A stretch of DNA of 64,000 bases from Bacteroidales bacterium. GTDB lineage: Bacteria; Bacteroidota; Bacteroidia; Bacteroidales; Muribaculaceae. The translations under genes and the position numbers were made by a program. The stretch is from assembly GCA_014800815.1 (NCBI GenBank), contig JAAVFI010000008.1:225-64224 (forward strand), in the 5' to 3' direction. Of this stretch, positions 6,944-19,085 are shown one piece after another (position 1 is the stretch's first letter; each line of letters starts with the position of its first letter). Below the pieces are notes generated by a model. That model did not search any database, was not told where the DNA came from, and saw only the letters and a program-made list of their open reading frames with translations.

Positions 6944-9900
6944 ATGTTCAGCAAATTCTTTATCAACAGGCCGATTTTCGCAACGGTACTTGCGATTATC
7001 ATGATTCTGGCCGGCTTGCTCACCGTGCGGACTCTCCCGGTTGCCCAGTACCCCGATATCACACCTCCTACGGTGTTTGTTTCAGCTACATATCCCGGAG
7101 CTGACGCCAAGACGGTCGCAGAGACCGTCGGCGTTCCTATCGAGGAACAGGTCAACGGTGTGGAGGGCATGATGTATATGAGCTCTACTTCGGGCTCCGA
7201 CGGATCTTATTCTCTCGAAATAACTTTCGAGAACGGTACAGACCCCGACATGGCTGCAGTTAAGGTGCAGAACCGCGTGGCTCAGGCAGAGTCCGTGCTC
7301 CCCGGAGCTGTCAAGCAGCAGGGAGTCTCGGTCAATTCCCGTTCTTCGAACATGATTCTTATGGTGGCTCTCGAGGGCAAGGATAAGGGACGATACAACA
7401 GTCTGTACCTTACCAACTATGCACAGCTCAGCGTTGTAGACGCACTTTCGCGCATCGACGGTGTAGGCGGTGTCGACGTTTTCGGCGCCGGTGAGTACAG
7501 CATGCGTGTCTGGCTCGACGCCGAGAAGATGCGTGCGCGCAATATCACCGCTTCCGACGTAATGGCTGCAATCTCGAGCCAGAACATGCAGGTGTCGGCA
7601 GGCTCCGTGGGTGCTCCTCCTACAGGCAACGGACAGCAGTTTGAGTACACTCTTACCGCTCAGGGCCGTCTGACAGACGCCGATGAATTCGCCAATATAG
7701 TAGTGCGTACCGACGACAAGGGAGGCATGCTGCGCCTCAAAGATATCGCTACCGTTGAGCTCGGAAGCCAGACATACTCTGCAAGCTCGAATGTATCGGC
7801 TCACGATGCCGGACTTATGGGTATCTATCAGCTCCCCGGTGCTAACGCCATGAAGGTAGCGAAGGCTGTGGAGAAGAAACTCGACGACCTCAAGCAGTAT
7901 TTCCCCGAGGGGGTAGACTACCGTATCGTGCTAAATACCACCGACTTTGTGAGCGCCTCTATCGACGATGTGCTTGTCACATTCCTTGAGACAACTCTCA
8001 TTGTGATGATCGTCATTCTCCTCTTCCTCCAGAACTGGCGCGCGGTGATCATTCCTATGCTTACCATACCTGTATCGCTTATCGCCACATTCGCCGTGAT
8101 GAAGATTATGGGATTTACCCTCAATACATTGACACTCTTCGGCCTTGTGCTTGCCATAGCCATTGTGGTGGACGATGCCATAGTGGTGGTGGAGGACTGT
8201 TCGCGAATACTTAACGCGGGCGGTGTATCTCCAAAACAGGCGGCCACCAAAGCTATGGAAGAACTTCAAGGGCCTGTCATCGGCGAGGTACTCGTACTTC
8301 TGTCGGTATTTATCCCCACGGCATTTATTTCGGGTATTACCGGCCAGCTCTACAAACAGTTCGCTCTCACTATCGCCGTATCAACGGCATTCTCGGGCTT
8401 CAACGCCCTAACCTTTACTCCGGCAATGTGCTCGCTGTTCTTGCGTCCGTCAGGTGGTCAGCCGAGGTTCTTCCTCTACCGTTGGTTCAACAAGGGCTTC
8501 GAATGGGTGCGCAATGTGTATAACAGCACCGTCGGACGCCTCCTCCGCAAGCCTGTGCTTGCCATGATAATCTTCGTGGTGATTTGCGGCGCAGCATTCT
8601 TCGGCTTCCTCCGCTGGCCGACCAGCTACGTGCCCGAAGAAGATATGGGTTACTTCATGACTTCCGTACAGCTTCCCTCGGGAGCATCTCTTGAACGCAC
8701 CGACAGCGTGTCGAGCCGTATTCAGCGCGATATCCTCTCCCTCCCTCAGGTTAAGGATGTGGTCCTCATCAACGGTATGTCGATGATGGGTGGCGGTGCC
8801 GGCAGCAACTACGCCTCAATGTTTGTAATCCTCAAACCCTGGAAAGACCGCAAGGGCAAGAAGAACGATGTGGAGTCGGTTATCGCTCAGGTAGATAAGA
8901 TGACTGCCGACGTTCAGGAGGGCATAGTATTCTCTATCAATCCTCCCGCAATCCCCGGTCTGGGTATGACTTCGGGCCTGCAGATGCAGCTCCTCGACAT
9001 CAACAACCTCGGCCCGACACAGCTCGCGCAGATCGTCGGCGAGATGCAGGCGGAAGCTGCCAAATATCCCGAGCTGAGACAGCTTACATCGCTCTATCAG
9101 GGAGGGGTGCCTCAGTACTCGATTAAGATCGACCGCGACAAGGCCAAAATCTACGGCCTCACACTCGAAGATATCTACACCGAACTATCGTCGTACATGG
9201 GCACCAGCTATGTGAACGATTTCGTGAAGTTCGGCCGCACTTACGAAGTGCTCGTCAGCGGTGATGAAGCCTCCCGTGCGCATGTGCACGACGTCCTCGA
9301 CCTCAGCGTGCGCAACGCCGAAGGAAACATGGTGCCTTTCTCAAGTTTTGCCTCGGTCAACGAAGTAATGGGTCAGGCTACAGTGAGCCGATATAATATG
9401 TACACTACCGCATCGCTGACAGGTACGGTGGCACCGCACGTAAGTTCGTCGAAGGCTATCAAGGCTATGGAAGAAATCGTCAGCAAGGTAGCGGGCAATT
9501 CTGTAAGCTATGCGTGGACAGGCGAGGCTCTGCAGGAAACTCAGGCCGGTACTACTATCGGTATGACGCTTATCTTCGCTATCATCATTACGATTCTCGT
9601 GCTCGCAGCTCAGTATGAATCGTGGACCGACCCCCTCGCCGTAGTAGTGACTACGCCTACCGCAATCCTCGGTACAGTACTCGGATGTATGTTCCTCAGC
9701 CAGAGCATCAGTATCTACACTCAGATAGGTATTATCCTGCTGCTCGGTATGGCGGCGAAGAACGCTATCCTTATCGTAGAATACGCTATGGACTACCGCA
9801 AGGCAGGAGAGCCTGTACGCAAGGCGGCCGAAGATGCGGGCAATGTACGACTCCGACCGATTCTTATGACGGCCCTCGCATTCGTCTTCGGTGTAATGCC

Positions 9901-10120
9901 TATGATTTTCGCCACAGGAGCAGGCGCCGCAAGCCGTGTATCACTCGGTACGGCTGTAGTATTCGGTATGGCAGTCAACGCGATTGCAGGCACACTCTTC
10001 GTACCGAGCTTCTGGGAACTTCTGCAGAATTTCCGCGAGAAGCATCTCTCTAACCTCTTCTCGAAGTCGACAGTCGTGGCTCCGAAGAAAGACGGTCAGG
10101 ACACTGCCGATTCGATATAA
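6944..10120 (+). CDS. RND efflux permease (HAE1/AcrB family)
   Basis: 1058 aa; FFINRPIFATV, AQYPDITPP, IVVDDAIVVVE, KNAILIVE, RLRPILMT proton-relay motifs intact. Confidence 0.96.
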   Translation: MFSKFFINRPIFATVLAIIMILAGLLTVRTLPVAQYPDITPPTVFVSATYPGADAKTVAETVGVPIEEQVNGVEGMMYMSSTSGSDGSYSLEITFENGTDPDMAAVKVQNRVAQAESVLPGAVKQQGVSVNSRSSNMILMVALEGKDKGRYNSLYLTNYAQLSVVDALSRIDGVGGVDVFGAGEYSMRVWLDAEKMRARNITASDVMAAISSQNMQVSAGSVGAPPTGNGQQFEYTLTAQGRLTDADEFANIVVRTDDKGGMLRLKDIATVELGSQTYSASSNVSAHDAGLMGIYQLPGANAMKVAKAVEKKLDDLKQYFPEGVDYRIVLNTTDFVSASIDDVLVTFLETTLIVMIVILLFLQNWRAVIIPMLTIPVSLIATFAVMKIMGFTLNTLTLFGLVLAIAIVVDDAIVVVEDCSRILNAGGVSPKQAATKAMEELQGPVIGEVLVLLSVFIPTAFISGITGQLYKQFALTIAVSTAFSGFNALTFTPAMCSLFLRPSGGQPRFFLYRWFNKGFEWVRNVYNSTVGRLLRKPVLAMIIFVVICGAAFFGFLRWPTSYVPEEDMGYFMTSVQLPSGASLERTDSVSSRIQRDILSLPQVKDVVLINGMSMMGGGAGSNYASMFVILKPWKDRKGKKNDVESVIAQVDKMTADVQEGIVFSINPPAIPGLGMTSGLQMQLLDINNLGPTQLAQIVGEMQAEAAKYPELRQLTSLYQGGVPQYSIKIDRDKAKIYGLTLEDIYTELSSYMGTSYVNDFVKFGRTYEVLVSGDEASRAHVHDVLDLSVRNAEGNMVPFSSFASVNEVMGQATVSRYNMYTTASLTGTVAPHVSSSKAIKAMEEIVSKVAGNSVSYAWTGEALQETQAGTTIGMTLIFAIIITILVLAAQYESWTDPLAVVVTTPTAILGTVLGCMFLSQSISIYTQIGIILLLGMAAKNAILIVEYAMDYRKAGEPVRKAAEDAGNVRLRPILMTALAFVFGVMPMIFATGAGAASRVSLGTAVVFGMAVNAIAGTLFVPSFWELLQNFREKHLSNLFSKSTVVAPKKDGQDTADSI

Positions 10121-10144
10121 CCTAACCTATATTCACTTAGTAAG

Positions 10145-10182
10145 ATTCCCGGTCAGACGCGATGTCAGATCGGGAATTTTTA
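10145..10182 (+). terminator. Intrinsic terminator of RND operon
   Basis: attcccg-gtcagac-gcgat-gtcagat-cgggaat followed by tttta. Confidence 0.7.
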
Positions 10183-10262
10183 GTATGACGGGCATGTCAT
10201 ACATCTGTGGTGAAAGTCCACACTGGGCGTAGTTACGACGAACCTTAAAGCGACTTGCAAGT
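10183..10262 (+). mobile_element. Probable 5' fragment of a class C (IIC) group II intron
   Basis: Begins GTATG 5 nt after the terminator stem; GAC-GGGCAT-GTC hairpin, then GTGGTGAAAGTCCAC, ending near GCAAG; resembles recalled IIC 5' ends; no RT ORF. Confidence 0.5.
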
Positions 10263-10272
10263 TTAGATGGAG

Positions 10273-10644
10273 CTACCTGCCGTCGTGTATCTTCGCGGCG
10301 TCCTGACGGAAGAAATGCCGCTGAATCAGCAACTCGGCCAGCAAGAGCAAAACCACTGGAGGAGCCAATAGAGACAGCAGGTCGAGATTGAATACCGAAG
10401 CAGACATCCCATCAAAGCGTAGCGCTCTGAAAGCAACAGCAAACATCTCGCCGCAATACACTGCAAGAGTTGCAGCTACGAAAAACACGCCGACAACAGC
10501 GAGAATGACGTTAGTCCATAAGCGGCGACGGCTGCGGCGAGCTTCGGCAAGTTTCACGGCAGCCATAATCTGCATATTCATACTTGCGGGCGGCTGAGTG
10601 CCGCGAGCTGCTATAGCTTTTTTCAGGTTTGAATTAGTCTTCAT
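10273..10644 (-). CDS. Small membrane protein, putative anti-sigma factor
   Basis: 123 aa, soluble N-terminus plus two TM segments; overlaps the ECF sigma stop. Confidence 0.7.
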   Translation of the reverse strand: MKTNSNLKKAIAARGTQPPASMNMQIMAAVKLAEARRSRRRLWTNVILAVVGVFFVAATLAVYCGEMFAVAFRALRFDGMSASVFNLDLLSLLAPPVVLLLLAELLIQRHFFRQDAAKIHDGR

Positions 10645-11194
10645 ATTGCGCAGCGAGTTTATTTATAAGTATATACAGCTGTTTGCGGATGCGGTGAAGT
10701 CTCACTTTAACGTTTGCCGGCGTCATGTCCATCACTACTGCGATGTCTACCACAGGCATTTCCTCGAAGTAGAAAAGAGTCACCAATGTGCGGTCCTGCA
10801 CAGAGATCATGTCGAGAGCCTCGGGTAGCGCGCACAGGCGCGTGTCATCCGACTCGAGAAAGACATCGACGGCAGAGTCGGATATTGCCTTCAGTCTCTC
10901 CTCATCGACAGCGACAGTCCTTGACGCCACAGAAGCCCTGCACAGATCTATCACGAGCCGGTAGGCCAAAGAGTAGAGCCATGTGCCGAAACTGCAGCGC
11001 CCATCGAATCGCGAGAGCCTCGTGAAGGCTCGCACAAATATCTCCTGCACTATATCGGGAGCCTCGACACCGCCGGGGGCGACCTTGCTCACAAGCCCGA
11101 AGACACGGGAGGAGTAACGGTCGACGAGTAACCCGAAACTGTCGGTGTCGCCGGAGAGCACGCGATTTATTATTTCTGCATCGGTGAGTTTCAC
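10634..11194 (-). CDS. ECF RNA polymerase sigma factor
   Basis: DIVQEIFVRAF..L.RFDGRCSFGTWLY (region 2); MTPANVKVRLHRIRKQL (region 4). Confidence 0.95.
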   Translation of the reverse strand: MKLTDAEIINRVLSGDTDSFGLLVDRYSSRVFGLVSKVAPGGVEAPDIVQEIFVRAFTRLSRFDGRCSFGTWLYSLAYRLVIDLCRASVASRTVAVDEERLKAISDSAVDVFLESDDTRLCALPEALDMISVQDRTLVTLFYFEEMPVVDIAVVMDMTPANVKVRLHRIRKQLYILINKLAAQYED

Positions 11195-11200
11195 ATATTA

Positions 11201-11230
11201 TTAGACGTATTACAGGGTGCCGAGGTTACA
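11201..11230 (-). promoter_or_regulatory. ECF-type promoter TGTAACC-N16-CGTCTAA driving the sigma gene (leaderless)
   Basis: ggttaca 11224-11230 and ttagacg 11201-11207; -10 ends 6 nt before the GTG at 11194. Confidence 0.7.
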
Positions 11231-11255
11231 TCCTGAAGAAAAATTTCGTAGTACA

Positions 11256-11285
11256 TGTAACCTCCGGACATATAAATCCGTCTAA
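11256..11285 (+). promoter_or_regulatory. ECF-type promoter TGTAACC-N16-CGTCTAA driving the divergent membrane protein
   Basis: tgtaacc 11256-11262, cgtctaa 11279-11285; identical elements and spacing to the opposite promoter. Confidence 0.7.
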
Positions 11286-11312
11286 AAGACAGAAACATTA
11301 AATAACACTCAC

Positions 11313-11696
11313 ATGGATCTAACACCTGTTTTCATTTTCGCAATCATCTCGGTTGCCCTTTACAAAATTCTCCAGCTCTTTGTCTGTCGTCGCGAGCGCC
11401 TTGCAATCATCGAAAAAATCAGCGACGGGATTTCTGCGACACGCATATGCGAGATGCTTAAAAATCAGTTCGGAGACTACACGACACTCCGTTGGGGCTC
11501 GCTTGCAATAGGTTTCGGCATCGGCATGTTGATTACCGCCATCGTCGCCCTTACCTCCAACTGGGACACTTCAATCCCCCATTTTTACCAATACAGGCAG
11601 ATGCTTGCCGGCGGTATCATAATACTTTGTGGAGGTCTCGGACTCATAGCAGGCTATATCATAGAATCGAAGCAACGAAAAGACGCAGAAAAATAA
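11313..11696 (+). CDS. Membrane protein, DUF6249-like
   Basis: RRERLAIIEK, TLRWG.L.IG.GIG pattern with 3 TM helices; family name recalled, not searched. Confidence 0.75.
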   Translation: MDLTPVFIFAIISVALYKILQLFVCRRERLAIIEKISDGISATRICEMLKNQFGDYTTLRWGSLAIGFGIGMLITAIVALTSNWDTSIPHFYQYRQMLAGGIIILCGGLGLIAGYIIESKQRKDAEK

Positions 11697-11750
11697 GACA
11701 TAATGATCTTCCGAAACTTAGTATAGATAACGACTGCATTCGAGTCATCG

Positions 11751-11853
11751 AAGTCGAAGTGCATCTGCAGGGGATTTAAACGGTCCGACTCCTTGCCGCT
11801 TTTTCCGAGCGACAGGCCGAGGAGACGTAGGGGAGTGCATACGTGGGCTTTGT
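11751..11853 (-). repeat. Direct repeat copy 1: decayed duplicate of the dinB 3' end
   Basis: 96/103 nt identical to 14603-14705; encodes KAHVCTPLRLLGLSLGKSGKESDRLNPLQMHFDF. Confidence 0.95.
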
Positions 11854-11857
11854 AACT

Positions 11858-11888
11858 ATCAGTTGGCAATATCTATGTGCCAACTGAT
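11858..11888. repeat. Perfect 11-bp inverted repeat at the islet left junction
   Basis: atcagttggca-N9-tgccaactgat, 4 nt from the direct repeat. Confidence 0.8.
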
Positions 11889-11950
11889 GTAACTGATAAT
11901 ATTTTCGAGCCTTTAACGGTGAAACACTTGTGTAATTTGTTATAAAGTTG

Positions 11951-11958
11951 TACCTTTG
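11951..11958 (+). promoter_or_regulatory. Bacteroidetes -7 promoter element of TA-like operon 1
   Basis: TACCTTTG, with TTG 20 nt upstream (11928-11930). Confidence 0.65.
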
Positions 11959-11985
11959 TAAGGTATTATATAAAAATTTCTGCTT

Positions 11986-12144
11986 ATGGCACGACCGATT
12001 AAAGAAACCCCCGAACTTCGAGGGAACGATGCGGTGAGATTTGAAACCCTGATCTCTACCCCAAAACCTGTGTCCAAAGAGGAGAAGGAGCGAGCCCGCA
12101 AGGCTTATGAAGTAATGAAATCTATCAGCAATTTTCAGTGGTGA
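11986..12144 (+). CDS. 52-aa putative antitoxin (not in ORF track)
   Basis: MARPIKETPELRGNDAVRFETLISTPKPVSKEEKERARKAYEVMKSISNFQW; its TGA overlaps the GNAT GTG (GTGA 12141-12144); similar to 28391-28576. Confidence 0.8.
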   Translation: MARPIKETPELRGNDAVRFETLISTPKPVSKEEKERARKAYEVMKSISNFQW

Positions 12145-12683
12145 AAATTGATTTCAGCAAACTGCGCCAGTTCCAACTCACAGAGGACTCTGACATAAAG
12201 CCGTTCAAATGTGCTGATGACGATTTGAACGAATTTCTCTTTGAAGACGCAAAGCATTTTCAAAGAGAACTCATGGCTGTGACTTATTTGCTCGAATATA
12301 TGGAGCAGAATAAGACCGTAGCCTATTTCAGTTTGCTTGCTGACAAAATTATATTCAATCCTGATGAAAAGGGCGTTTGGAATAAACTTAATCGTAATAT
12401 TCCAAACTCCAAACGTCGCAGAAGTTATCCCGCAGTAAAAGTTGGTCGCCTTGCTGTGAATGAAAATTATTCCGGTCAAGGTCTTGGTACATTCATACTT
12501 GACAACATCAAGTATGCATTCTCTAATGTAAAGCGTCTTGGTTGCCGCTTTATTACAGTAGATGCGCTGAAAACTGCCGTGCCGTTTTATGAACGTAACG
12601 GCTTTCAATGTATAACAGAGTCAGACAAGGACGAAGAAACACGCCTGATGTTCTTCGACCTTAAAAATTTCATAACAGAATGA
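12141..12683 (+). CDS. GNAT acetyltransferase, AtaT/TacT-like putative toxin
   Basis: F.C.DDDLNEFL, YPAVKVGRLAV...YSGQGLG, GCRFITVDA, AVPFYERNGF; start taken at GTG 12141 (track gives 12138). Confidence 0.85.
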   Translation: MKIDFSKLRQFQLTEDSDIKPFKCADDDLNEFLFEDAKHFQRELMAVTYLLEYMEQNKTVAYFSLLADKIIFNPDEKGVWNKLNRNIPNSKRRRSYPAVKVGRLAVNENYSGQGLGTFILDNIKYAFSNVKRLGCRFITVDALKTAVPFYERNGFQCITESDKDEETRLMFFDLKNFITE

Positions 12684-12953
12684 TGTCTATGAAATATCAA
12701 CGGAAGTTCACATGGCGATATGCACACTAACCGTTTTGGTGGTTCATGGTTCACGATGGACGCATCAGTAGGCAAGTCATTCCTGAATAAATCTCTCACT
12801 CTCAAACTGTCTGCTACTGACATTTCTCTCTTTGTGCTAAATCATTTAAATTCAAACACTCTCTAAGAAACTTCATAATGATATTTTATCTGGAAGTAAA
12901 ATTTTTGGCGTATCTTTGCTTTATAATATCCAACACTGTTTCAGTATAACGGT

Positions 12954-14006
12954 ATGTTCATAAAAGACTTTTCTAAACTTTGGTTGCTCTTTGTTATAGT
13001 CACTTTATTTAATTGCTCTACAATTAATGGAACCAATATTGTAACCTATGTTGTTTCAGATAGTATAGACCTTTCTTCAGAGAAACTTAAAATGGAATTA
13101 GAGAGTTTTTCAAATGGGGATGATAAGGTTAGAATCTCTTTTAAATTGAAAAGTGCCAATGTGCCTTTTACGATTTATGATGCAAGATGGGTGAATTGTG
13201 ATACAACACTTGTCCCATCCGAACCTTTCTCATTGATTGCGCAAACTAATGAGGTGTCCGGTAAAAACACCGAATGGCACATCTCTCTTGATTTCCCATT
13301 CTCTGATACATTTGAAGATGATGATGTTTTAATTCTAAACACTGACAAAGGAATTATAAGATGTCCTACATCGATTACCGGAAAACTAAGAGTAGAGCTG
13401 GATCTTCTTCGCAACGACTATGAGAATGCAAAAATGAGTGTGCAGAATACATGGATACTTTTATTTGTTACATTGGCGTCTGTTATTGTTATCAGTGCAA
13501 TTGTTTTAATTGTTGTCAAGCGAAGGCTTACACGAAAGCAGAGAGAGATTGAAGAACTTTCAATGCTTATTTCGGAGAGAACCAATCGCAACTATGAACT
13601 GGAGGCGCAGGTTAATACTCTATATAGCAGTCGGCTTGACACGCTGAATATGTTATGTAATGAGTATTTTGAAAAAAGTGATTCCGAGAAGGTGAAACTT
13701 TCGCTATATAATGAAGTTGAAAAACAGATATTGGCTTTACGTGATACCAAAAGGATAGCAGAACTTGAAACGATTGTCAATAAATACATGGACAATATTC
13801 TCGCAAAGGTTCGTGAACAGTTGCCCGAACTTACCGGCAAAGATTTGATATTCCTTACTTATCTCTATGCCGGTTTCGCACCTCGGGCAGTTTGTATTTT
13901 TACCGATATAAAGATTAAGAATTTTTACAACCGTCGAAGCCGACTTAAGGACCGCATCCTTGAATCAAGTGCACCGGATAAGGAAACTTTTGTTTCTAAA
14001 ATGTAG
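12954..14006 (+). CDS. Membrane-spanning regulator with C-terminal LuxR-like HTH
   Basis: Signal peptide, extracytoplasmic domain, TM (WILLFV..IVVK), coiled coil, LPELTGKDLIFLTYLYAGF.PRAVCIF...NFYNRRSRLKDRI; TATCTTTG promoter at 12911-12918. Confidence 0.75.
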   Translation: MFIKDFSKLWLLFVIVTLFNCSTINGTNIVTYVVSDSIDLSSEKLKMELESFSNGDDKVRISFKLKSANVPFTIYDARWVNCDTTLVPSEPFSLIAQTNEVSGKNTEWHISLDFPFSDTFEDDDVLILNTDKGIIRCPTSITGKLRVELDLLRNDYENAKMSVQNTWILLFVTLASVIVISAIVLIVVKRRLTRKQREIEELSMLISERTNRNYELEAQVNTLYSSRLDTLNMLCNEYFEKSDSEKVKLSLYNEVEKQILALRDTKRIAELETIVNKYMDNILAKVREQLPELTGKDLIFLTYLYAGFAPRAVCIFTDIKIKNFYNRRSRLKDRILESSAPDKETFVSKM

Positions 14007-14166
14007 TCTTAACTGGATGATTATCAAGGTGAGGAATTGCTAATTTTTCTTCATGTTGATTATCAGGCTATTAGGGACTTAAATGAGGACAGATATTTTG
14101 TGATATTTTTTGGTCTGCCTAAATATGGATGCTAATTTTGCGGTGTCAAATCAAAAATAACGTCAC

Positions 14167-14484
14167 ATGAAAAAAATCTTTTTAACTGCAGTTTTCAGCC
14201 TCGCGGTTTTTGCGGCTTCTGCTGAAATCAAGTTCCAATCTCTCGACAATGTCAAGGGGACTAACGTAGTGCTGGTAGATGAAAACGCTCCGCAAACAGT
14301 CAATATCACCGATGCTATTTTATCAAATAATGGTAGCGAGTATCCCGCGAAAGAAATAAGATGCGACGTGGTAAACGGAGTTGCAACCTACAAACTCAAG
14401 TTCAAACGACACACCCATTTCAAAGACACTAAAGTAACGCTTACTGTCAATGGGAAAAAAATCACCATAGACATTCTGGATTAA
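14167..14484 (+). CDS. Small secreted beta-rich hypothetical protein
   Basis: SPI signal MKKIFLTAVFSLAVFAASA; TAATTTTG promoter upstream. Confidence 0.8.
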   Translation: MKKIFLTAVFSLAVFAASAEIKFQSLDNVKGTNVVLVDENAPQTVNITDAILSNNGSEYPAKEIRCDVVNGVATYKLKFKRHTHFKDTKVTLTVNGKKITIDILD

Positions 14485-14520
14485 GTTGCGGTGGTAAGCC
14501 ACACATTCCGATCATCGCTT

Positions 14521-14547
14521 TAGGTGCTTCGCTTGGCGAAGCATCTA
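14521..14547. terminator. Hairpin between the converging islet gene and dinB
   Basis: taggtgcttcgc-ttg-gcgaagcatcta; no clear U-tract. Confidence 0.45.
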
Positions 14548-14598
14548 AGTTCACGACTAAAAGGCTTCAACCTCACACTCCTTATTTAACGCCGTGGT

Positions 14599-15666
14599 CT
14601 AAAAGTCGAAGTGCATCTGCAGGGGATTTTCGCGGTCCGACTCCTTGCCGCTTTTTCCGAGCGACAGGCCGAGGAGGCGTAGGGGAGTGCGCACGTTGGC
14701 TTTGTCGAGCAGGCTGCGGGCGGCTGTGAGTATTTCTTCAACCGTAGCCACGGGGGAGAATCCCGAGAGGGAGCGGGTGTGGGTGTCGAAGGCCGATGTG
14801 CGCAACTTGAGTGTGAGCACACTGCCGTCGAACTCTTTTGTGCTGATGCGTCGGTGCAGTTCCTCGGCGAGCGACGCCAGTATGCCGTCGAGTTCGGCAG
14901 GGTCGCTGATGTCGGAGTCGAATGTGCGTTCGCATCCTATTGACTTGCGGACGCGGAAAGCTTCGACGGGACGATTGTCGACGCCACGGGCAAAATCGTA
15001 GTACTGTTTGCCGGCTTTGCCGAAGTAGAGCCGAAGTTCGGGTACTGAAAGATTGCGCAGATCGGCGCCTGTGTATATTCCGAGAGAGTGCATCTTGGCA
15101 GCTGTCACGGGGCCTACTCCCCAGAAACTTTCCACGGGCATGTGGGCTATGAATTCGGCTGCGCGCTCGGGAGCTATCACGCATAGTCCGTCGGGTTTGC
15201 GGTAGTCGGATGCTATCTTGGCGAGGAACTTGTTGAACGACACGCCGGCAGATGCTACGAGGCCGAGTTCGTCGCGTATCGCCTTCTTAATGTCGCGGGC
15301 GATGTCGAGTGCAAGAGGGATGTTACGGTGATTTTCCGTTACGTCGAGGAAGGCCTCGTCGAGTGATATAGGCTCGATGATATCGGTATGGCGGTGTAAT
15401 ATTTCGTGAATCTGTGCCGATACCGCCTTGTATACGTCGAACCTGCAGTCGACGAATGTAAGCTGCGGGCACAGCTTGCGTGCTTTGGACGACGACATGG
15501 CGGATCGCACTCCGAAGCGGCGTGCCTCGTAGCTTGCCGCGCATACCACACCGCGTCCGTCGGCCTGACCTACGGCTATAGGCACACCGCGGAGGGCGGG
15601 ATTGTCGCGCTGTTCTACCGAAGCGTAGAAAGCGTCCATGTCGATGTGTATGATTTTGCGAACCAT
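14599..15666 (-). CDS. dinB: DNA polymerase IV
   Basis: RKIIHIDMDAFYASVEQRD, ASYEARRFGV.SAM, SLDEAFLD, NKFLAKIASD..KPDG; C-terminal clamp-like QMHFDF; ATG at 15666. Confidence 0.97.
   Translation of the reverse strand: MVRKIIHIDMDAFYASVEQRDNPALRGVPIAVGQADGRGVVCAASYEARRFGVRSAMSSSKARKLCPQLTFVDCRFDVYKAVSAQIHEILHRHTDIIEPISLDEAFLDVTENHRNIPLALDIARDIKKAIRDELGLVASAGVSFNKFLAKIASDYRKPDGLCVIAPERAAEFIAHMPVESFWGVGPVTAAKMHSLGIYTGADLRNLSVPELRLYFGKAGKQYYDFARGVDNRPVEAFRVRKSIGCERTFDSDISDPAELDGILASLAEELHRRISTKEFDGSVLTLKLRTSAFDTHTRSLSGFSPVATVEEILTAARSLLDKANVRTPLRLLGLSLGKSGKESDRENPLQMHFDF
14603..14705 (-). repeat. Direct repeat copy 2: functional dinB 3' end
   Basis: Pairs with 11751-11853 (7 mismatches). Confidence 0.95.
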
Positions 15667-15694
15667 AGTTTGCGGAGAGATTGAAAGAGAGGGT

Positions 15695-15729
15695 AAAAAA
15701 AGAGGCAAGCACTTGATGCGCTTGCCTCT
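15695..15729 (-). terminator. Terminator after tRNA-Glu, 28 nt upstream of dinB
   Basis: agaggcaagc..gcttgcctct stem followed by U-tract on minus. Confidence 0.8.
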
Positions 15730-15744
15730 ATCGGCTTGATTTTG

Positions 15745-15817
15745 TAGCGAATCAGGGAATCGAACCCTGGTCTCCACCGTGAGAGGGTGGCGTGCTAGGC
15801 CACTACACTAAATCGCC
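15745..15817 (-). tRNA. tRNA-Glu (anticodon CTC)
   Basis: GGCGATTTAGTGTAGTGGCCTAGCACG-CCACC-CTCTCAC-GGTGG-AGACCAGGGTTCGATTCCCTGATTCGCTA; TAACTTTG promoter at 15835-15842. Confidence 0.93.
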
Positions 15818-15910
15818 ATTTTTCGTTTGCGATGCAAAGTTAAGGCGAAATTTCTGACTGTGCAAGTATTTCGGCTGATTTTAACATTATTTTAGGCTGA
15901 GCGATTTGTC

Positions 15911-15953
15911 AAAAAATAAAGGCAGACGCACTGCCGGGAGCGCGCCTGCCTTT
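15911..15953 (-). terminator. Terminator of the clpB-lipoprotein unit
   Basis: aaaggcag.cgc stem with U-rich tail on minus. Confidence 0.7.
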
Positions 15954-15975
15954 GTAACAGACAATTGGGAATACT

Positions 15976-16461
15976 TTACTTGGGATTTGCCTGGGTGGTG
16001 GTAGGAGTGGCCACAAATGTGGTTGAACCACCGCCGGGCACTTCGTCTTCCGACTCAACAACTACCACTTTCAAACCGATAACCGCAGTGGCAACTTCTT
16101 TGTCGACAGCCAGGACGGGAGCCTGAATATCGAGTGAGTGATTGCCGAGGGGAGTGGTGTCGGAGGTAGGAATCTCGATACCGTAGGGTGCGAATACCGA
16201 GGTGCCGATGTAGCGGCCGTCCCAGAAATACGCAGCCTGGGTGATTGCGGCTTCCTTGCCTTCCTCACGGTTGGTAACGGTGATGCCGGAGATAGTGAGG
16301 GTTTCGCCCTGAACTACATATACGGCACCGTCGACCTTGGTGGCATTTTCTACTTCGACGTTGAAGTCTACGTCGGGGAGGTTTTTGTCGTCGTCGCTGC
16401 AGCTTACGAAGGCTAATGCGGGAATAGCGATTAAAGCTGCTGCAAGGAGTTTTTTAATCAT
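15976..16461 (-). CDS. Hypothetical lipoprotein
   Basis: Lipobox FVSC followed by acidic SDDDK; Ig-like beta content. Confidence 0.8.
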   Translation of the reverse strand: MIKKLLAAALIAIPALAFVSCSDDDKNLPDVDFNVEVENATKVDGAVYVVQGETLTISGITVTNREEGKEAAITQAAYFWDGRYIGTSVFAPYGIEIPTSDTTPLGNHSLDIQAPVLAVDKEVATAVIGLKVVVVESEDEVPGGGSTTFVATPTTTQANPK

Positions 16462-16493
16462 GAACTTGAAATTTGATTATGTTAATATTTAGG

Positions 16494-19085
16494 TTAATTC
16501 TTGAATACAAGGTCGTCGCCTTCAACGTCGATTACGATAGGTTGCGACTTGTCGACTTTCTGTGCGAGGATGTCCTTTGAGAGCTGGTTGAGCACCAGAC
16601 GGTGTATTGCTCTCTTCACGGGACGTGCACCGAATTCGGGGTCGAAGCCTTCGTCGGCGAGGAATGAGAGGGCCTTGGGAGTAATCTTGAGCTCGATGCC
16701 CGACGATGCCATGAGCATCTTCTGGATACTCTTGATCTGGAGTCCTACGATTTCTTCGATTTCAGTTCTGTTCAGCGGTGTGAACATGATGATTTCGTCG
16801 ATACGGTTGAGGAACTCGGGACGGATCGTCTGCTTGAGCATGTCGAGCACGGCCTCCTTGGTCTTCTCGATGGTCTCAACACGGTTCTGAGGCGTAATCT
16901 TGGCGAAGTTGTCGCGGATGAGCGAAGAACCCATGTTTGAGGTCATGATGATAATGGTGTTCTTGAAGTTGACGTTGCGGCCCTTGTTGTCGGTAAGGTG
17001 GCCGTCGTCGAGCACCTGAAGGAGGATGTTGAATACATCGGGGTGAGCCTTCTCGATTTCGTCGAAGAGCACTACGGAGTAGGGTTTGCGACGAACCGCT
17101 TCGGTGAGCTGACCGCCTTCATCGTAGCCTACGTATCCCGGAGGCGCTCCTACGAGACGCGACACTGAGTGTTTCTCCTGATACTCGCTCATGTCGATAC
17201 GGGTCATCATGTTCTCGTCGTCGAAGAGGTATTCGGCGAGAGCCTTTGCGAGTTCGGTCTTACCTACACCGGTGGTACCGAGGAAGATAAACGAACCGAT
17301 AGGACGCTTGGGGTCGTTGAGGCCTGCGCGGCTTCGGCGTACGGCATCGGCAATGGCGGTGATAGCCTCGTCCTGACCGATTACGCGGTCGTGGAGTTCT
17401 TCTTCGAGGTGGAGGAGTTTCTCCTTCTCGCTCTGAACCATCTTGTTGACGGGGATACCTGTCCAGCGCGATACTACGTCGGCGATGTCTTCGGCATCAA
17501 CTTCTTCCTTGATGAGCGATTTCTCGCCCTGCATCATCTTGAGCTGCTCCTGAGTGGTCTCGATTTCTTTCTGCTTCTCGGCGATGCGGGAGTAGCGGAT
17601 TTCGGCCACGCGGGCGTAGTCGCCTTCGCGTTCGGCTTTCTCGGCCTCGAAGTTGAGCTGCTCTATATCAATCTTATTCTGCTGAATACGGTTGATGAGG
17701 TCGCGCTCGGCCTGCCACTTGGCGGAGTATTCTTTCTCCTCCTCGCGGAGTGAGGCAATTTCGTGCTCGATTTCGCGCACTTTTTCGTCCTGACCTTCGC
17801 GCTTGATAGCCTCGCGTTCGATTTCCTTCTGGGCTATACGGCGGGTGATGTCGTCGAGCGCCTGAGGCACGGAGTCGATTTCGAGTTTGAGCTTAGATGC
17901 AGCCTCGTCGATAAGGTCAATGGCCTTGTCGGGGAGGAAGCGGTCGGTGATGTATCGCTCCGAAAGCTGCACGGCTGCAATAATCGCCTCGTCGCGGATA
18001 CGCACTTTGTGGTGATTCTCGTAGCGCTCTTTAAGACCGCGGAGGATAGCGATAGCGCTGGTCTCGTCGGGCTCGTTGACCATTACTTTCTGGAAACGGC
18101 GCTCGAGAGCCTTGTCTTTTTCAAAATATTTCTGGTATTCGTCGAGTGTGGTGGCACCGATGCTGCGGAGTTCGCCGCGGGCGAGAGCAGGCTTGAGGAT
18201 GTTTGCTGCATCCATTGCGCCTTCGCCTTTACCGGCGCCTACGAGGGTGTGGATTTCGTCGATAAAGAGGATAATCTCACCGTCGGCACCCGTCACTTCG
18301 TTGACGATAGCCTTGAGTCGTTCTTCGAACTCGCCTTTGTACTTGGCACCTGCCACAAGGGCTCCCATGTCGAGCGAATAAATCTGCTTAGTGCGGAGGT
18401 TTTCGGGCACGTCGCCGCGAACGATGCGGTGTGCAAGACCCTCTGCGATAGCTGTCTTACCTGTACCCGGCTCTCCGATAAGCATAGGGTTGTTTTTGGT
18501 TCGGCGGCTGAGAATCTGGAGCACGCGGCGGATTTCTTCGTCACGGCCGATTACGGGGTCTAGCTTGCCTGCGCGGGCGCGTTCGTTGAGGTTGATAGCG
18601 TACTTTGAGAGAGCGTTGTAAGTTTCCTCAGCGCTCTGGTCGGTTGCTTTCTTGCCCTTGCGGAGTTCCTCGATAGCCGATTCGAGTTCCTTCTTGCCGA
18701 GGCCGGCATCCTTGAGGATGGTGGCTGCGGGAGAATTTATCTCGAAGAGAGCAAGGAGCATAGCTTCAAGAGTCACATATTCGTCGCCCTGCTTCTTTGC
18801 AATGTCGAGCGACTTCTGGAGTACGTCGTTCGAAGTGCGGCTGAGGTAGGGTTCCTGACCTGAAACTTTGGGCAATTTAGCAATTTCTGCGTCGACAGCA
18901 CGTGTGACGTTGGCGGGGTTGGCTCCTATCTTCTGGAATATGAACTTAACCACCGATTCTCCCTCGTCAATCACACCCTTGAGGATGCAGACAGGTTCTA
19001 CAGCCTGACTTCCGGCACCTCGGGTAATCTCGACGGCCTTCTGTATGGCTTCCTGCGATTTTATTGTAAAACTGTTGAAATTCAT
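16494..19085 (-). CDS. clpB: ATP-dependent chaperone ClpB
   Basis: 863 aa; two AAA modules ([16 protein letters not shown]), middle coiled coil, [12 protein letters not shown]. Confidence 0.98.

Follow-up and report, generated by a model that had tools for sequence, protein, structure and literature searches.

Phage-derived islet between two copies of the dinB tail in a Muribaculaceae genome

Insertions at the 3' end of a housekeeping gene are exemplified by the cryptic prophage e14 and phage 21 in icd of Escherichia coli, where the displaced native 3' end persists as a 163-bp pseudo-icd' fragment (PMC6379469). A second known class comprises the cis-mobilizable elements (CIMEs), which are decayed integrative and conjugative elements or integrative and mobilizable elements that keep attL and attR and have lost their integration and transfer genes (PMC5704250). 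Here we describe an islet of 2745 nt that lies between two copies of the tail of dinB, the gene for DNA polymerase IV, in a 64,000-nt stretch of contig JAAVFI010000008.1 (Bacteroidales bacterium, Muribaculaceae, assembly GCA_014800815.1); this whole stretch is called the window hereafter. Compared loci and contigs are designated L, and metagenome runs, which are represented by unitigs, are designated X.

A third kind of event to be considered is illegitimate or homology-facilitated illegitimate recombination and template-switch insertion of the type of microhomology-mediated break-induced replication (MMBIR), reportedly the subject of work by de Vries and Wackernagel in 2002 and by Hastings and co-workers in 2009. 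These mechanisms were defined experimentally in other bacteria, a duplication of 103 nt is at the long end of the reported range, and to our knowledge neither has been demonstrated in Muribaculaceae. The dinB islet resembles such insertions in having arbitrary joints inside genes with little or no microhomology, a flanking target duplication, no recombinase and orphan filler DNA (24 and 34 bp in the islet, and a 67-bp copy of a pump gene tail in the related locus L001). Like e14 and phage 21, it occupies the 3' end of a housekeeping gene, takes the last codons from the junction with a small change of the protein end, and leaves the displaced 3' end as a pseudogene fragment in direct repeat, of 163 bp in icd and 103 nt in dinB. 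However, e14 has an integrase and defined att sites and excises, whereas the dinB islet has no integrase, its ends cut phage genes, its two repeat copies were nearly identical at the start, and no phage carrying a dinB tail was found in IMG/VR. A decayed interior is shared with the CIMEs, but a CIME is bounded by repeats that still work as att sites for a related element resident in the cell, while the dinB repeats show no sign of att function, no related element of the same specificity was found and the repeat boundaries are illegitimate joints.

Repeat searches followed by direct comparison revealed a direct repeat of 103 nt at positions 11751-11853 (copy 1) and 14603-14705 (copy 2), with 96 of 103 nucleotides identical and 2852 nt from start to start, and it was the sole long direct repeat detected within 10000-17000. 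The mismatches are located at 11778-11780, 11825, 11839, 11840 and 11845, and the longest perfect block between the two copies is 44 nt. The length and similarity of the repeat exclude chance. Homology between the copies is limited exactly by the last dinB codon on one side and stops after ...GCTTTGT on the other. Copy 2 belongs to dinB itself (14599..15666, minus strand), which is intact and encodes 355 aa ending in ...NPLQMHFDF and a stop codon. The product matched Pfam IMS, IMS_HHH and IMS_C and the NCBIfam DNA polymerase IV equivalog NF002677 with 435 bits over residues 2-347 (cut-off 256 bits), and its QMHFDF aligned with the QLxLDF clamp-binding terminus of 20 relatives; it is DNA polymerase IV with a C-terminal motif of the beta-clamp binding type. 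The taxa recorded for dinB homologues likewise place the host in Muribaculaceae. The GC content is 29-42% in the islet interior versus approximately 55% in the flanks. The insert is flanked, as an integrative element would be, by direct repeats of which one contains the 3' end of the target gene. A previous sequence-only reading of the window had proposed that a 103-bp duplication of the dinB tail bounds the islet, and that foreign DNA had inserted at the dinB 3' end and had restored the gene with a new terminus; both claims hold, and the duplication was found in four further assemblies.

The unoccupied target site was found in related genomes. In L113 (GCA_964472555.1; dinB 91% identical) the gene for a resistance-nodulation-division (RND) pump and dinB are arranged tail to tail, 58 bp apart with a hairpin in the spacer, and in L003 (dinB 80% identical) dinB converges on an AcrB-like RND pump gene whose end overlaps its own, with nothing between them. 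Relative to the empty site the window carries approximately 4.5 kb of inserted DNA (10182-14598). An empty site within the species was not found among the loci compared. The empty dinB-DUF6249 junction for which the earlier reading had looked to other strains was not recovered in L113 or L003 either, the sigma/anti-sigma/DUF6249 block being absent there too.

Comparison with the empty site also gave the polarity of the duplication. The dinB of L113 ends in ...ENPLQLHFDFDE and a stop (DFDE-stop); homology to it starts at 11745 for copy 1 and only at 14603 for copy 2, copy 1 running 6 nt further. The flank of copy 1 reads ...F-D-E-TAA in X45, with the stop as in L113, and F-D-E-TAG in X26, while the codons for D, E and stop have decayed in L002 and in the window (11739..11750, minus strand). 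Because L113 ends in DFDE-stop and the less decayed copies of X45 and X26 keep ...FDE and a stop, copy 1 is the native end. The differences between copy 1 and copy 2 number 2 in X45, 3 in X26, 6 in L002 and 7 in the window. One X26 change, GAA to TAA, is intermediate toward the TTA of the window, and the AAA/TCG cluster changed stepwise from TCG through TAG, the intermediate present in X26, to AAA. It follows from these 2-7 graded differences that the copies began with an identity of at least 98%. Between the window and L113 the identity of the repeat segment is no more than about 80%, and dinB tails diverge by about 20% even between sister lineages.

Copy 1 (11751..11853, minus strand), now a pseudogene fragment, and its left flank are thus the former end of dinB, which has been displaced and decays with a bias toward AT, and the ...DF-stop terminus of copy 2 is the new end, with a stop codon supplied by junction DNA. 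This polarity, and the neutral, AT-biased decay of the displaced end, agree with what had been suggested from the window. The count of five GC-to-AT changes among the seven differences is correct, but not all seven belong to copy 1, as position 14692 is a change in copy 2 of the window where the other three copies have T. The consequence for dinB is small, namely a polymerase that lacks two C-terminal residues and retains its clamp-binding motif. With an empty site, a native end at four stages of decay and a phage source at hand, the origin of a small orphan islet could be reconstructed unusually completely.

The same islet and repeat are present on L002, a 65-kb contig of the European Nucleotide Archive from another sample, which is 98.0% identical to the window over 17.6 kb. 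In runs X26 and X45 the left flank, copy 1 and the islet are covered by one unitig each, of 218 and 243 nt, and a unitig of run X27 spans the junction from DUF6249 to the flank. The joints are identical in all five observations (window, L002, X26, X27 and X45), and a single event inherited by a strain cluster is therefore indicated.

All 2745 nt of the islet were assigned to known pieces and the two orphan segments of 24 and 34 bp; there is thus no space for an integrase remnant. Over 11852-12696, a segment that begins at the terL stop and takes in the toxin-antitoxin pair, the islet shares 97.75% identity with L121. The upstream gene there encodes 541 aa, matches PHROG 2 (terminase large subunit) and counts 447 relatives in IMG/VR; it is preceded by genes for a ClpP-type head-maturation protease and capsid-like proteins. 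The left islet end (11852..11891, plus strand) consists of the terL stop codon and a terminator hairpin (arms 11858-11868 and 11878-11888), a perfect 11-bp inverted repeat spanning 11858-11888 with a folding energy of -17.6 kcal/mol (z -4.84). The terL remnant comprises the stop codon only in the window, 4 codons in L114 and 8 codons in L001, while L121 and L099 contain the gene body. This inverted repeat was also considered as a recombinase site and as a toxin-antitoxin operator and was rejected as either, being the terL terminator. A candidate DDE transposase adjoining the repeat in L099 was likewise discarded; it was a weak match (E 7e-4, below the cut-off) on the opposite strand, and the actual sequence is the terL tail.

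The toxin of the pair (12138..12683, plus strand) is a protein of 181 aa of the Gcn5-related N-acetyltransferase (GNAT) type that matched Pfam Acetyltransf_7 and Acetyltransf_10 and PHROG 1758 at 2.5e-35. Comparison by phmmer with solved toxins gave E values of 1.5e-8 to 4e-4 for 7f37, KacT (5zgn, 5xun), AtaT (6ajm, 6gts) and TacT (5fvj, 7ak7). The protein is homologous to the tRNA-acetylating GNAT toxins and is a putative type II toxin. The putative antitoxin of 52 aa (11986..12144, plus strand) overlaps the toxin start by 7 nt; it showed no similarity in Pfam, NCBIfam or the PDB. Of the pair that had been called toxin-antitoxin-like, the toxin is borne out by homology and the antitoxin is assigned from its position only. 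As in TacAT, AtaRT and KacAT, a small upstream open reading frame overlaps a gene for a GNAT protein of about 180 aa, and the module comes from a phage accessory region. It differs from these systems in that the 52-aa partner has no detectable similarity to ribbon-helix-helix or DUF1778 proteins. Like the GNAT modules of phage morons and cryptic prophages, it persists after the surrounding element has gone.

The terminator of the toxin-antitoxin pair is halved at 12696. It adjoins an internal fragment of an OMP_b-brl_3 outer-membrane beta-barrel gene (12692..12825, plus strand) that is 91% identical to codons ~593-637 of a 693-aa gene in L086-L089, and that remained after an internal deletion had removed the DNA between the terminator of the pair and approximately codon 593 of this gene. 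An orphan filler of 34 bp (12826..12859), unmatched elsewhere, replaces 185 bp of L086-type sequence. Together, 12692-12825 and 12860-14574 are 91% identical to L086-L089, where the order is the complete 693-aa OMP_b-brl_3 gene, a 350-aa gene, DUF8177 and an 88-aa gene. In the islet the 350-aa membrane protein (12954..14006, plus strand) has 227 homologues, mostly in Muribaculaceae, and no match in Pfam, NCBIfam or the PDB; in its AlphaFold model (predicted local distance difference test score 67) a helix of the signal or transmembrane type and a beta-sandwich are accompanied by a transmembrane segment that leads into a long helix, and the C-terminus is helical. Its former label, regulator, was a guess that gained no family or structural assignment. 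The secreted DUF8177 protein of 105 aa (14167..14484, plus strand; Pfam match on the L002 orthologue) follows the 350-aa gene in L086-L089 also. The phage-derived part ends with a segment (14512..14574, -20.8 kcal/mol) made up of a hairpin-containing intergenic repeat and the last 8 codons of the 88-aa gene (14550-14574, minus strand). The remaining 24 bp (14575..14598), between this DNA and the new dinB stop (14599-14601), are an orphan that had no match in any compared locus or in IMG/VR. An exact-protein look-up returned no identical record for the dinB product, the 350-aa protein or the DUF8177 protein of the window.

The outer-membrane protein of L086-L089 is 80% identical to a 708-aa product encoded 1.7 kb downstream of terL on the IMG/VR contig L124, and the far end of L086 likewise matches L124. 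Both islet halves are collinear with one family of phage-like elements, and the islet corresponds to the variable moron stretch downstream of terL. It is an internal piece of a phage-like element and not a coherent integrative element. An outer-membrane beta-barrel or TonB-receptor-like gene is unusual inside a phage-like element. The shared sequence and gene order with phage-like DNA are those of a prophage remnant; no phage structural genes survive in the window itself.

At the left joint, host ...GGCTT continues with CGTAACTATCAG in X45 and with TGTAACT... in the window, at the terL stop and with an overlap of about 1 nt. A TTGT microhomology considered for this joint was weakened by X45, which reads TTCGTAAC and reduces the real overlap to about 1 nt. 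The loci L001, L114, L099 and L121 continue through the left breakpoint of the window into terL, and the left joint is for that reason a one-off breakpoint and not the terminus of an element. At the right joint, homology to the donor (L086-L089) ends at 14574 within the last 8 codons of the 88-aa gene, and the order is donor DNA, the 24 orphan bases and CTA, the new dinB stop. L002 is without 42 bp at the islet-dinB junction (window 14557-14598), between two CTAAAAG repeats of which one is native to the phage-derived DNA and the other was formed by the new dinB stop; the loss takes away part of the 24-bp orphan and is an example of short-repeat deletion trimming the islet. Both joints are of the illegitimate type and cut inside phage sequence. 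Among the loci and collections compared, no recurrent defined element termini were found, neither as the same att site elsewhere nor as attP on a free form. The repeats had been interpreted as attL and attR of a site-specific element, but the left joint is at the terL stop and the right joint lies inside a gene of the phage region and adds a 24-bp orphan, and a site-specific reading is not demonstrated and on balance disfavoured. Around an islet without an integrase, a geometry like that of attL and attR is not in itself enough to show site-specific integration.

Analysis of the Pfam tables of the 98%-identical strain revealed no annotated integrase, transposase or relaxase in the islet or within approximately 10 kb on each side, in accordance with the description of the islet as integrase-free; no tyrosine, serine or DDE recombinase and no remnant of one was found in or beside the insert. 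A larger element with the same dinB tail and an integrase, as the sequence-only reading had envisaged, was not found in IMG/VR or in the metagenomes of the Joint Genome Institute (JGI). A 31-mer of the dinB tail had no match in either collection, a dinB C-terminal profile gave 19 pattern matches in IMG/VR of which none was confirmed, and dinB was absent from 80 loci examined of the terL family (447 IMG/VR relatives). IMG/VR contained no match to the inverted repeat, the toxin or the 350-aa protein, and the islet had no match in the GenBank plasmid or phage collections. A scan of the JGI metagenomes with a degenerate form of the inverted repeat gave 21 matches, 20 by chance and one informative (L099). 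Neither a joint skipping the islet nor a circle joint was seen in the runs examined, which consist of low-depth assembled contigs that hide rare forms.

The explanation that we tentatively favour, at somewhat less than an even chance, is that the islet is a phage fragment captured without a recombinase, with a 103-bp target duplication, and now an immobile scar held by its toxin-antitoxin pair. The ancestral locus would have consisted of the convergent pump gene and dinB, about 58 bp apart with a shared terminator hairpin, and dinB would have ended in ...QMHFDFDE and stop. A linear phage-like fragment, comprising the accessory moron region with the terL stop and terminator, the GNAT pair, the outer-membrane gene and the genes for the 350-aa and DUF8177 proteins, would have been joined at the hairpin base without a site-specific recombinase. 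One fragment end would have been joined 103 nt inside dinB and the other directly behind the last codon of the clamp motif (F), ahead of the two terminal codons. Either a staggered break or template switching at a replication fork stalled by the hairpin would then have left the intervening 103 nt of host DNA on both sides. The gene-body copy would gain its stop from the 24-bp filler and leave dinB intact as ...DF-stop, and the copy on the old downstream DNA would keep the native ...DE-stop end and subsequently decay. The toxin-antitoxin pair would make loss of the insert costly, so that the insert is inherited by the whole cluster while internal deletions trim it. Counter-selection of excision by the pair, already suggested from the window, is plausible. 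Capture is favoured because it needs a single event, makes identical copies automatic and fits both the fillers and the solo toxin-antitoxin cassettes described below; any model requires illegitimate joints at both islet ends. From this evidence we infer the joining mechanism, the role of the pair in retention and the function of the shortened dinB. The locus is a phage-derived insertion scar in an unusual target, presumably anchored by its toxin-antitoxin pair, and no working mobile element.

Several points weigh against capture. Illegitimate insertions with a target duplication of 100 bp are rare in bacteria, none of the other solo toxin-antitoxin insertions shows such a duplication, the 103-nt one being peculiar to the dinB site, and the joining mechanism itself is not observable from sequence. 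Integrase-mediated insertion is classically recognised by a duplicated 3' gene end whose reading frame has been restored, as for e14 in icd (PMC6379469). A stop directly after the clamp motif is what would be expected of an evolved element, and for a random joint it is a mild coincidence of about 1 in 20. The parent phage-like family could carry an integrase beyond the 10-kb flanks examined, and the differently truncated phage copy at the same locus in L001 could indicate a preferred phage target.

The main competitor, which we consider less likely, extends the sequence-only reading and takes the islet to be a decayed prophage. According to this explanation, a temperate phage of the L121/L124 family with its own tyrosine integrase entered the 3' end of dinB and was later whittled down; its attP would have borne a dinB tail ending in ...DF-stop, the implied form being ACACTCCTTATTTAACGCCGTGGTCTAA followed by the dinB tail, and the 103-nt repeats would be the remnants of attL and attR. 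Deletions would have left only the toxin-antitoxin-anchored moron, one ending inside the attR copy and the other 24 bp from attL. The precedent is strong: geometry and polarity are exactly those of e14 and phage 21 in icd with its 163-bp pseudo-icd' (PMC6379469), and integrative mobilizable elements and CIMEs at the 3' ends of housekeeping genes offer a further match (PMC5704250). The empty site in relatives, the derivation of the islet from a phage-like element, the new stop directly after the clamp motif and the presence in L001 and X28, also at this locus, of a copy of the phage region with another truncation point the same way. Nevertheless every islet base is otherwise explained and leaves no integrase or remnant, and the islet ends are internal phage sequence, which would require two large deletions ending within 0-24 bp of the repeats. 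No IMG/VR contig, the 80 terL relatives included, carried a mimic of the dinB C-terminus, the 31-mer of the tail or the 24-bp filler. Copies at least 98% identical at the start, in a tail that diverges by about 20% between sister lineages, would need a species-specific attP. None of the 83 other dinB loci among the matches listed carries a tail duplication; all of these are at most 67% identical, which makes this a weak test.

Entry by homologous recombination is improbable as the origin of the structure. A circle carrying the islet and one dinB tail, produced by RecA recombination between the repeats or by aberrant excision, would have entered naive strains by a single Campbell-type crossover and recreated the duplication. 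Such a crossover with a 103-nt tail gives the exact structure with initially identical copies, the 44-nt perfect block suffices for RecA, and L002 shows that short-repeat deletions occur here. On the other hand, the identical joints and graded decay of copy 1 suggest one old vertical event and not repeated entries, the low-depth contigs contained no islet-skipping form or circle joint, and the circle would still require the same two illegitimate joints beforehand. Finally, a chimeric contig in which misjoined strains created the duplication, a concern raised by the metagenome-type assembly of the window, by the co-occurrence of strain variants within one study and by the sequence-only reading itself, has a negligible probability and is refuted by independent assemblies, as the architecture recurs on the 65-kb contig at 98% identity and in single unitigs of two other runs and the substitutions are diagnostic for each copy.

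Searches with the toxin-antitoxin pair revealed an antitoxin identical over its 52 aa on 625 or more Bacteroidales contigs, which come from the gut of pigs, rodents and other hosts. The cassette is usually a two-gene solo insert; it occupies at least five other chromosomal sites and was found between unrelated housekeeping genes in L115/L122, L116, L120/L123, L114/L119 and L117. The left limits of homology to the window range from 11859 to 11927, and the right limits vary too. Among the cassette copies there are nested terL stubs of 0, 4 or 8 codons, from which a phage origin of the cassette follows. The toxin was lost and the antitoxin kept in L114, L117 and L119, and one contig of X2 has a deletion of 451 nt in the toxin gene. 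None of these solo cassettes is flanked by direct repeats of at least 12 bp or adjoined by an integrase. Since so many lack both, capture of this phage region without a recombinase would be frequent, and on these comparisons it is evidently common. The presence of an identical antitoxin on hundreds of contigs from gut Bacteroidales is a lead on how phage morons become chromosomal addiction modules. A general process of capture and hold, in which phage cassettes with toxin-antitoxin pairs are fixed in Bacteroidales independently of recombinases, terminator hairpins of convergent genes serve as break-prone landing pads, duplications of the 100-nt class are the footprint and the duplicated tail is a portable homology for strain hopping by RecA only, would make one process of the dinB islet, the 67-bp copy in L001 and the solo cassettes; we consider so broad a generalisation doubtful and put it forward as speculation.

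Two side observations concern the source and the right end of the islet. In the IMG/VR terL family (L121, L124-L203) the sequence directly after the terL stop differs in almost every member, and the cargo of this moron hot spot includes toxin-antitoxin pairs, XRE regulators, an OmpR-like regulator with a 700-aa outer-membrane-type gene, and others. The hairpin sequence of about 62 bp at the right islet end (GGTGCTTCGCTTGGCGAAGCATC…GACTAAAAGGCTTCAACCT) is also located directly upstream of the toxin-antitoxin cassette in L114/L119 (9792-9858), which belong to another genus; it is possibly an intergenic repeat of the repetitive extragenic palindromic type that marks junctions.

The interval between the pump gene and dinB contains further inserted DNA. 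Ancestrally, dinB had as its convergent neighbour the gene of the AcrB-like RND efflux pump (6944..10120, plus strand; 1058 aa), for which the 98%-identical strain gave a match to Pfam ACR_tran. The pump gene has kept a native intergenic remnant (10121..10181) with a terminator hairpin at 10142-10180 (-20.8 kcal/mol, z -4.65), and 10121-10181 is homologous to the 58 bp that separate the two genes in L113, with an alignment score reached by 18 of 2000 shuffles. Insertion 1, or module A (10269..11706), lies between this native hairpin and the native dinB stop and carries an anti-sigma-like gene (10273-10644, minus strand), a gene for an extracytoplasmic function (ECF) sigma factor (10634-11194, minus strand) and DUF6249 (11313-11696, plus strand), all with Pfam matches. 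The block is absent between the pump gene and dinB in L003 and L113; as a unit of about 94% identity it recurs in X1, X3, X29 and L112, where its flanks differ. Breaks have occurred repeatedly at its right boundary (11701-11706), and at the base of the terminator hairpin insertion 1 and the right joint of the islet are no more than about 12 nt apart. A 13-nt match, ACTTAGTA(T)AGAT, flanks insertion 1 and is marginal as a duplication (104 of 2000 shuffles). At the left edge of insertion 1 is a repeat of about 58 nt (10177..10234; …TATGACGGGCATGTCATACATCTGTGGTGAAAGTCCACACTGGGCG), present once in the window and in high copy elsewhere, with a depth of up to 1680 (X4) and many different flanks in unitigs from rodent and other gut metagenomes; it had no Rfam match and no significant fold, and may be a dispersed Muribaculaceae repeat at this edge. 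The tRNA-Glu(CTC) gene (15744-15817, minus strand), 78 nt upstream of dinB on the other side of the locus, is uninvolved in the insertion.

Variant strains indicated that the locus has been rearranged repeatedly. L001 shares with the window only the DUF6249 cassette (11277-11701) and has a different gene to its left. In L001, as in X28, a copy of 67 bp of the pump gene tail (L001 554-620, window 9998-10064; 98.5% identical) replaces the dinB fragment between DUF6249 and the 8-codon terL stub, and was thus seen in two independent datasets; it may be a templated filler or another duplication. The islet part of L001 is 96.3% identical to the window versus 99% for DUF6249, which suggests an exchange with a related phage. 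In L090 (98.5% identical) dinB is broken at about codon 251 (window 14914; L090 1226-1302) and followed by the tail of an unrelated convergent gene (…GFTADNILGEVQKLL and stop). From this break it follows that dinB is dispensable in at least some strains and that its 3' half is a site of repeated rearrangement, and the pump-dinB locus as a whole is prone to rearrangement. Between the divergent ECF sigma factor and DUF6249 genes of insertion 1, 11201-11285 contains a 31-nt imperfect inverted repeat (74% complementary), and the right arm of this repeat holds position 11277, where the DUF6249 cassette in common with L001 has its left boundary.

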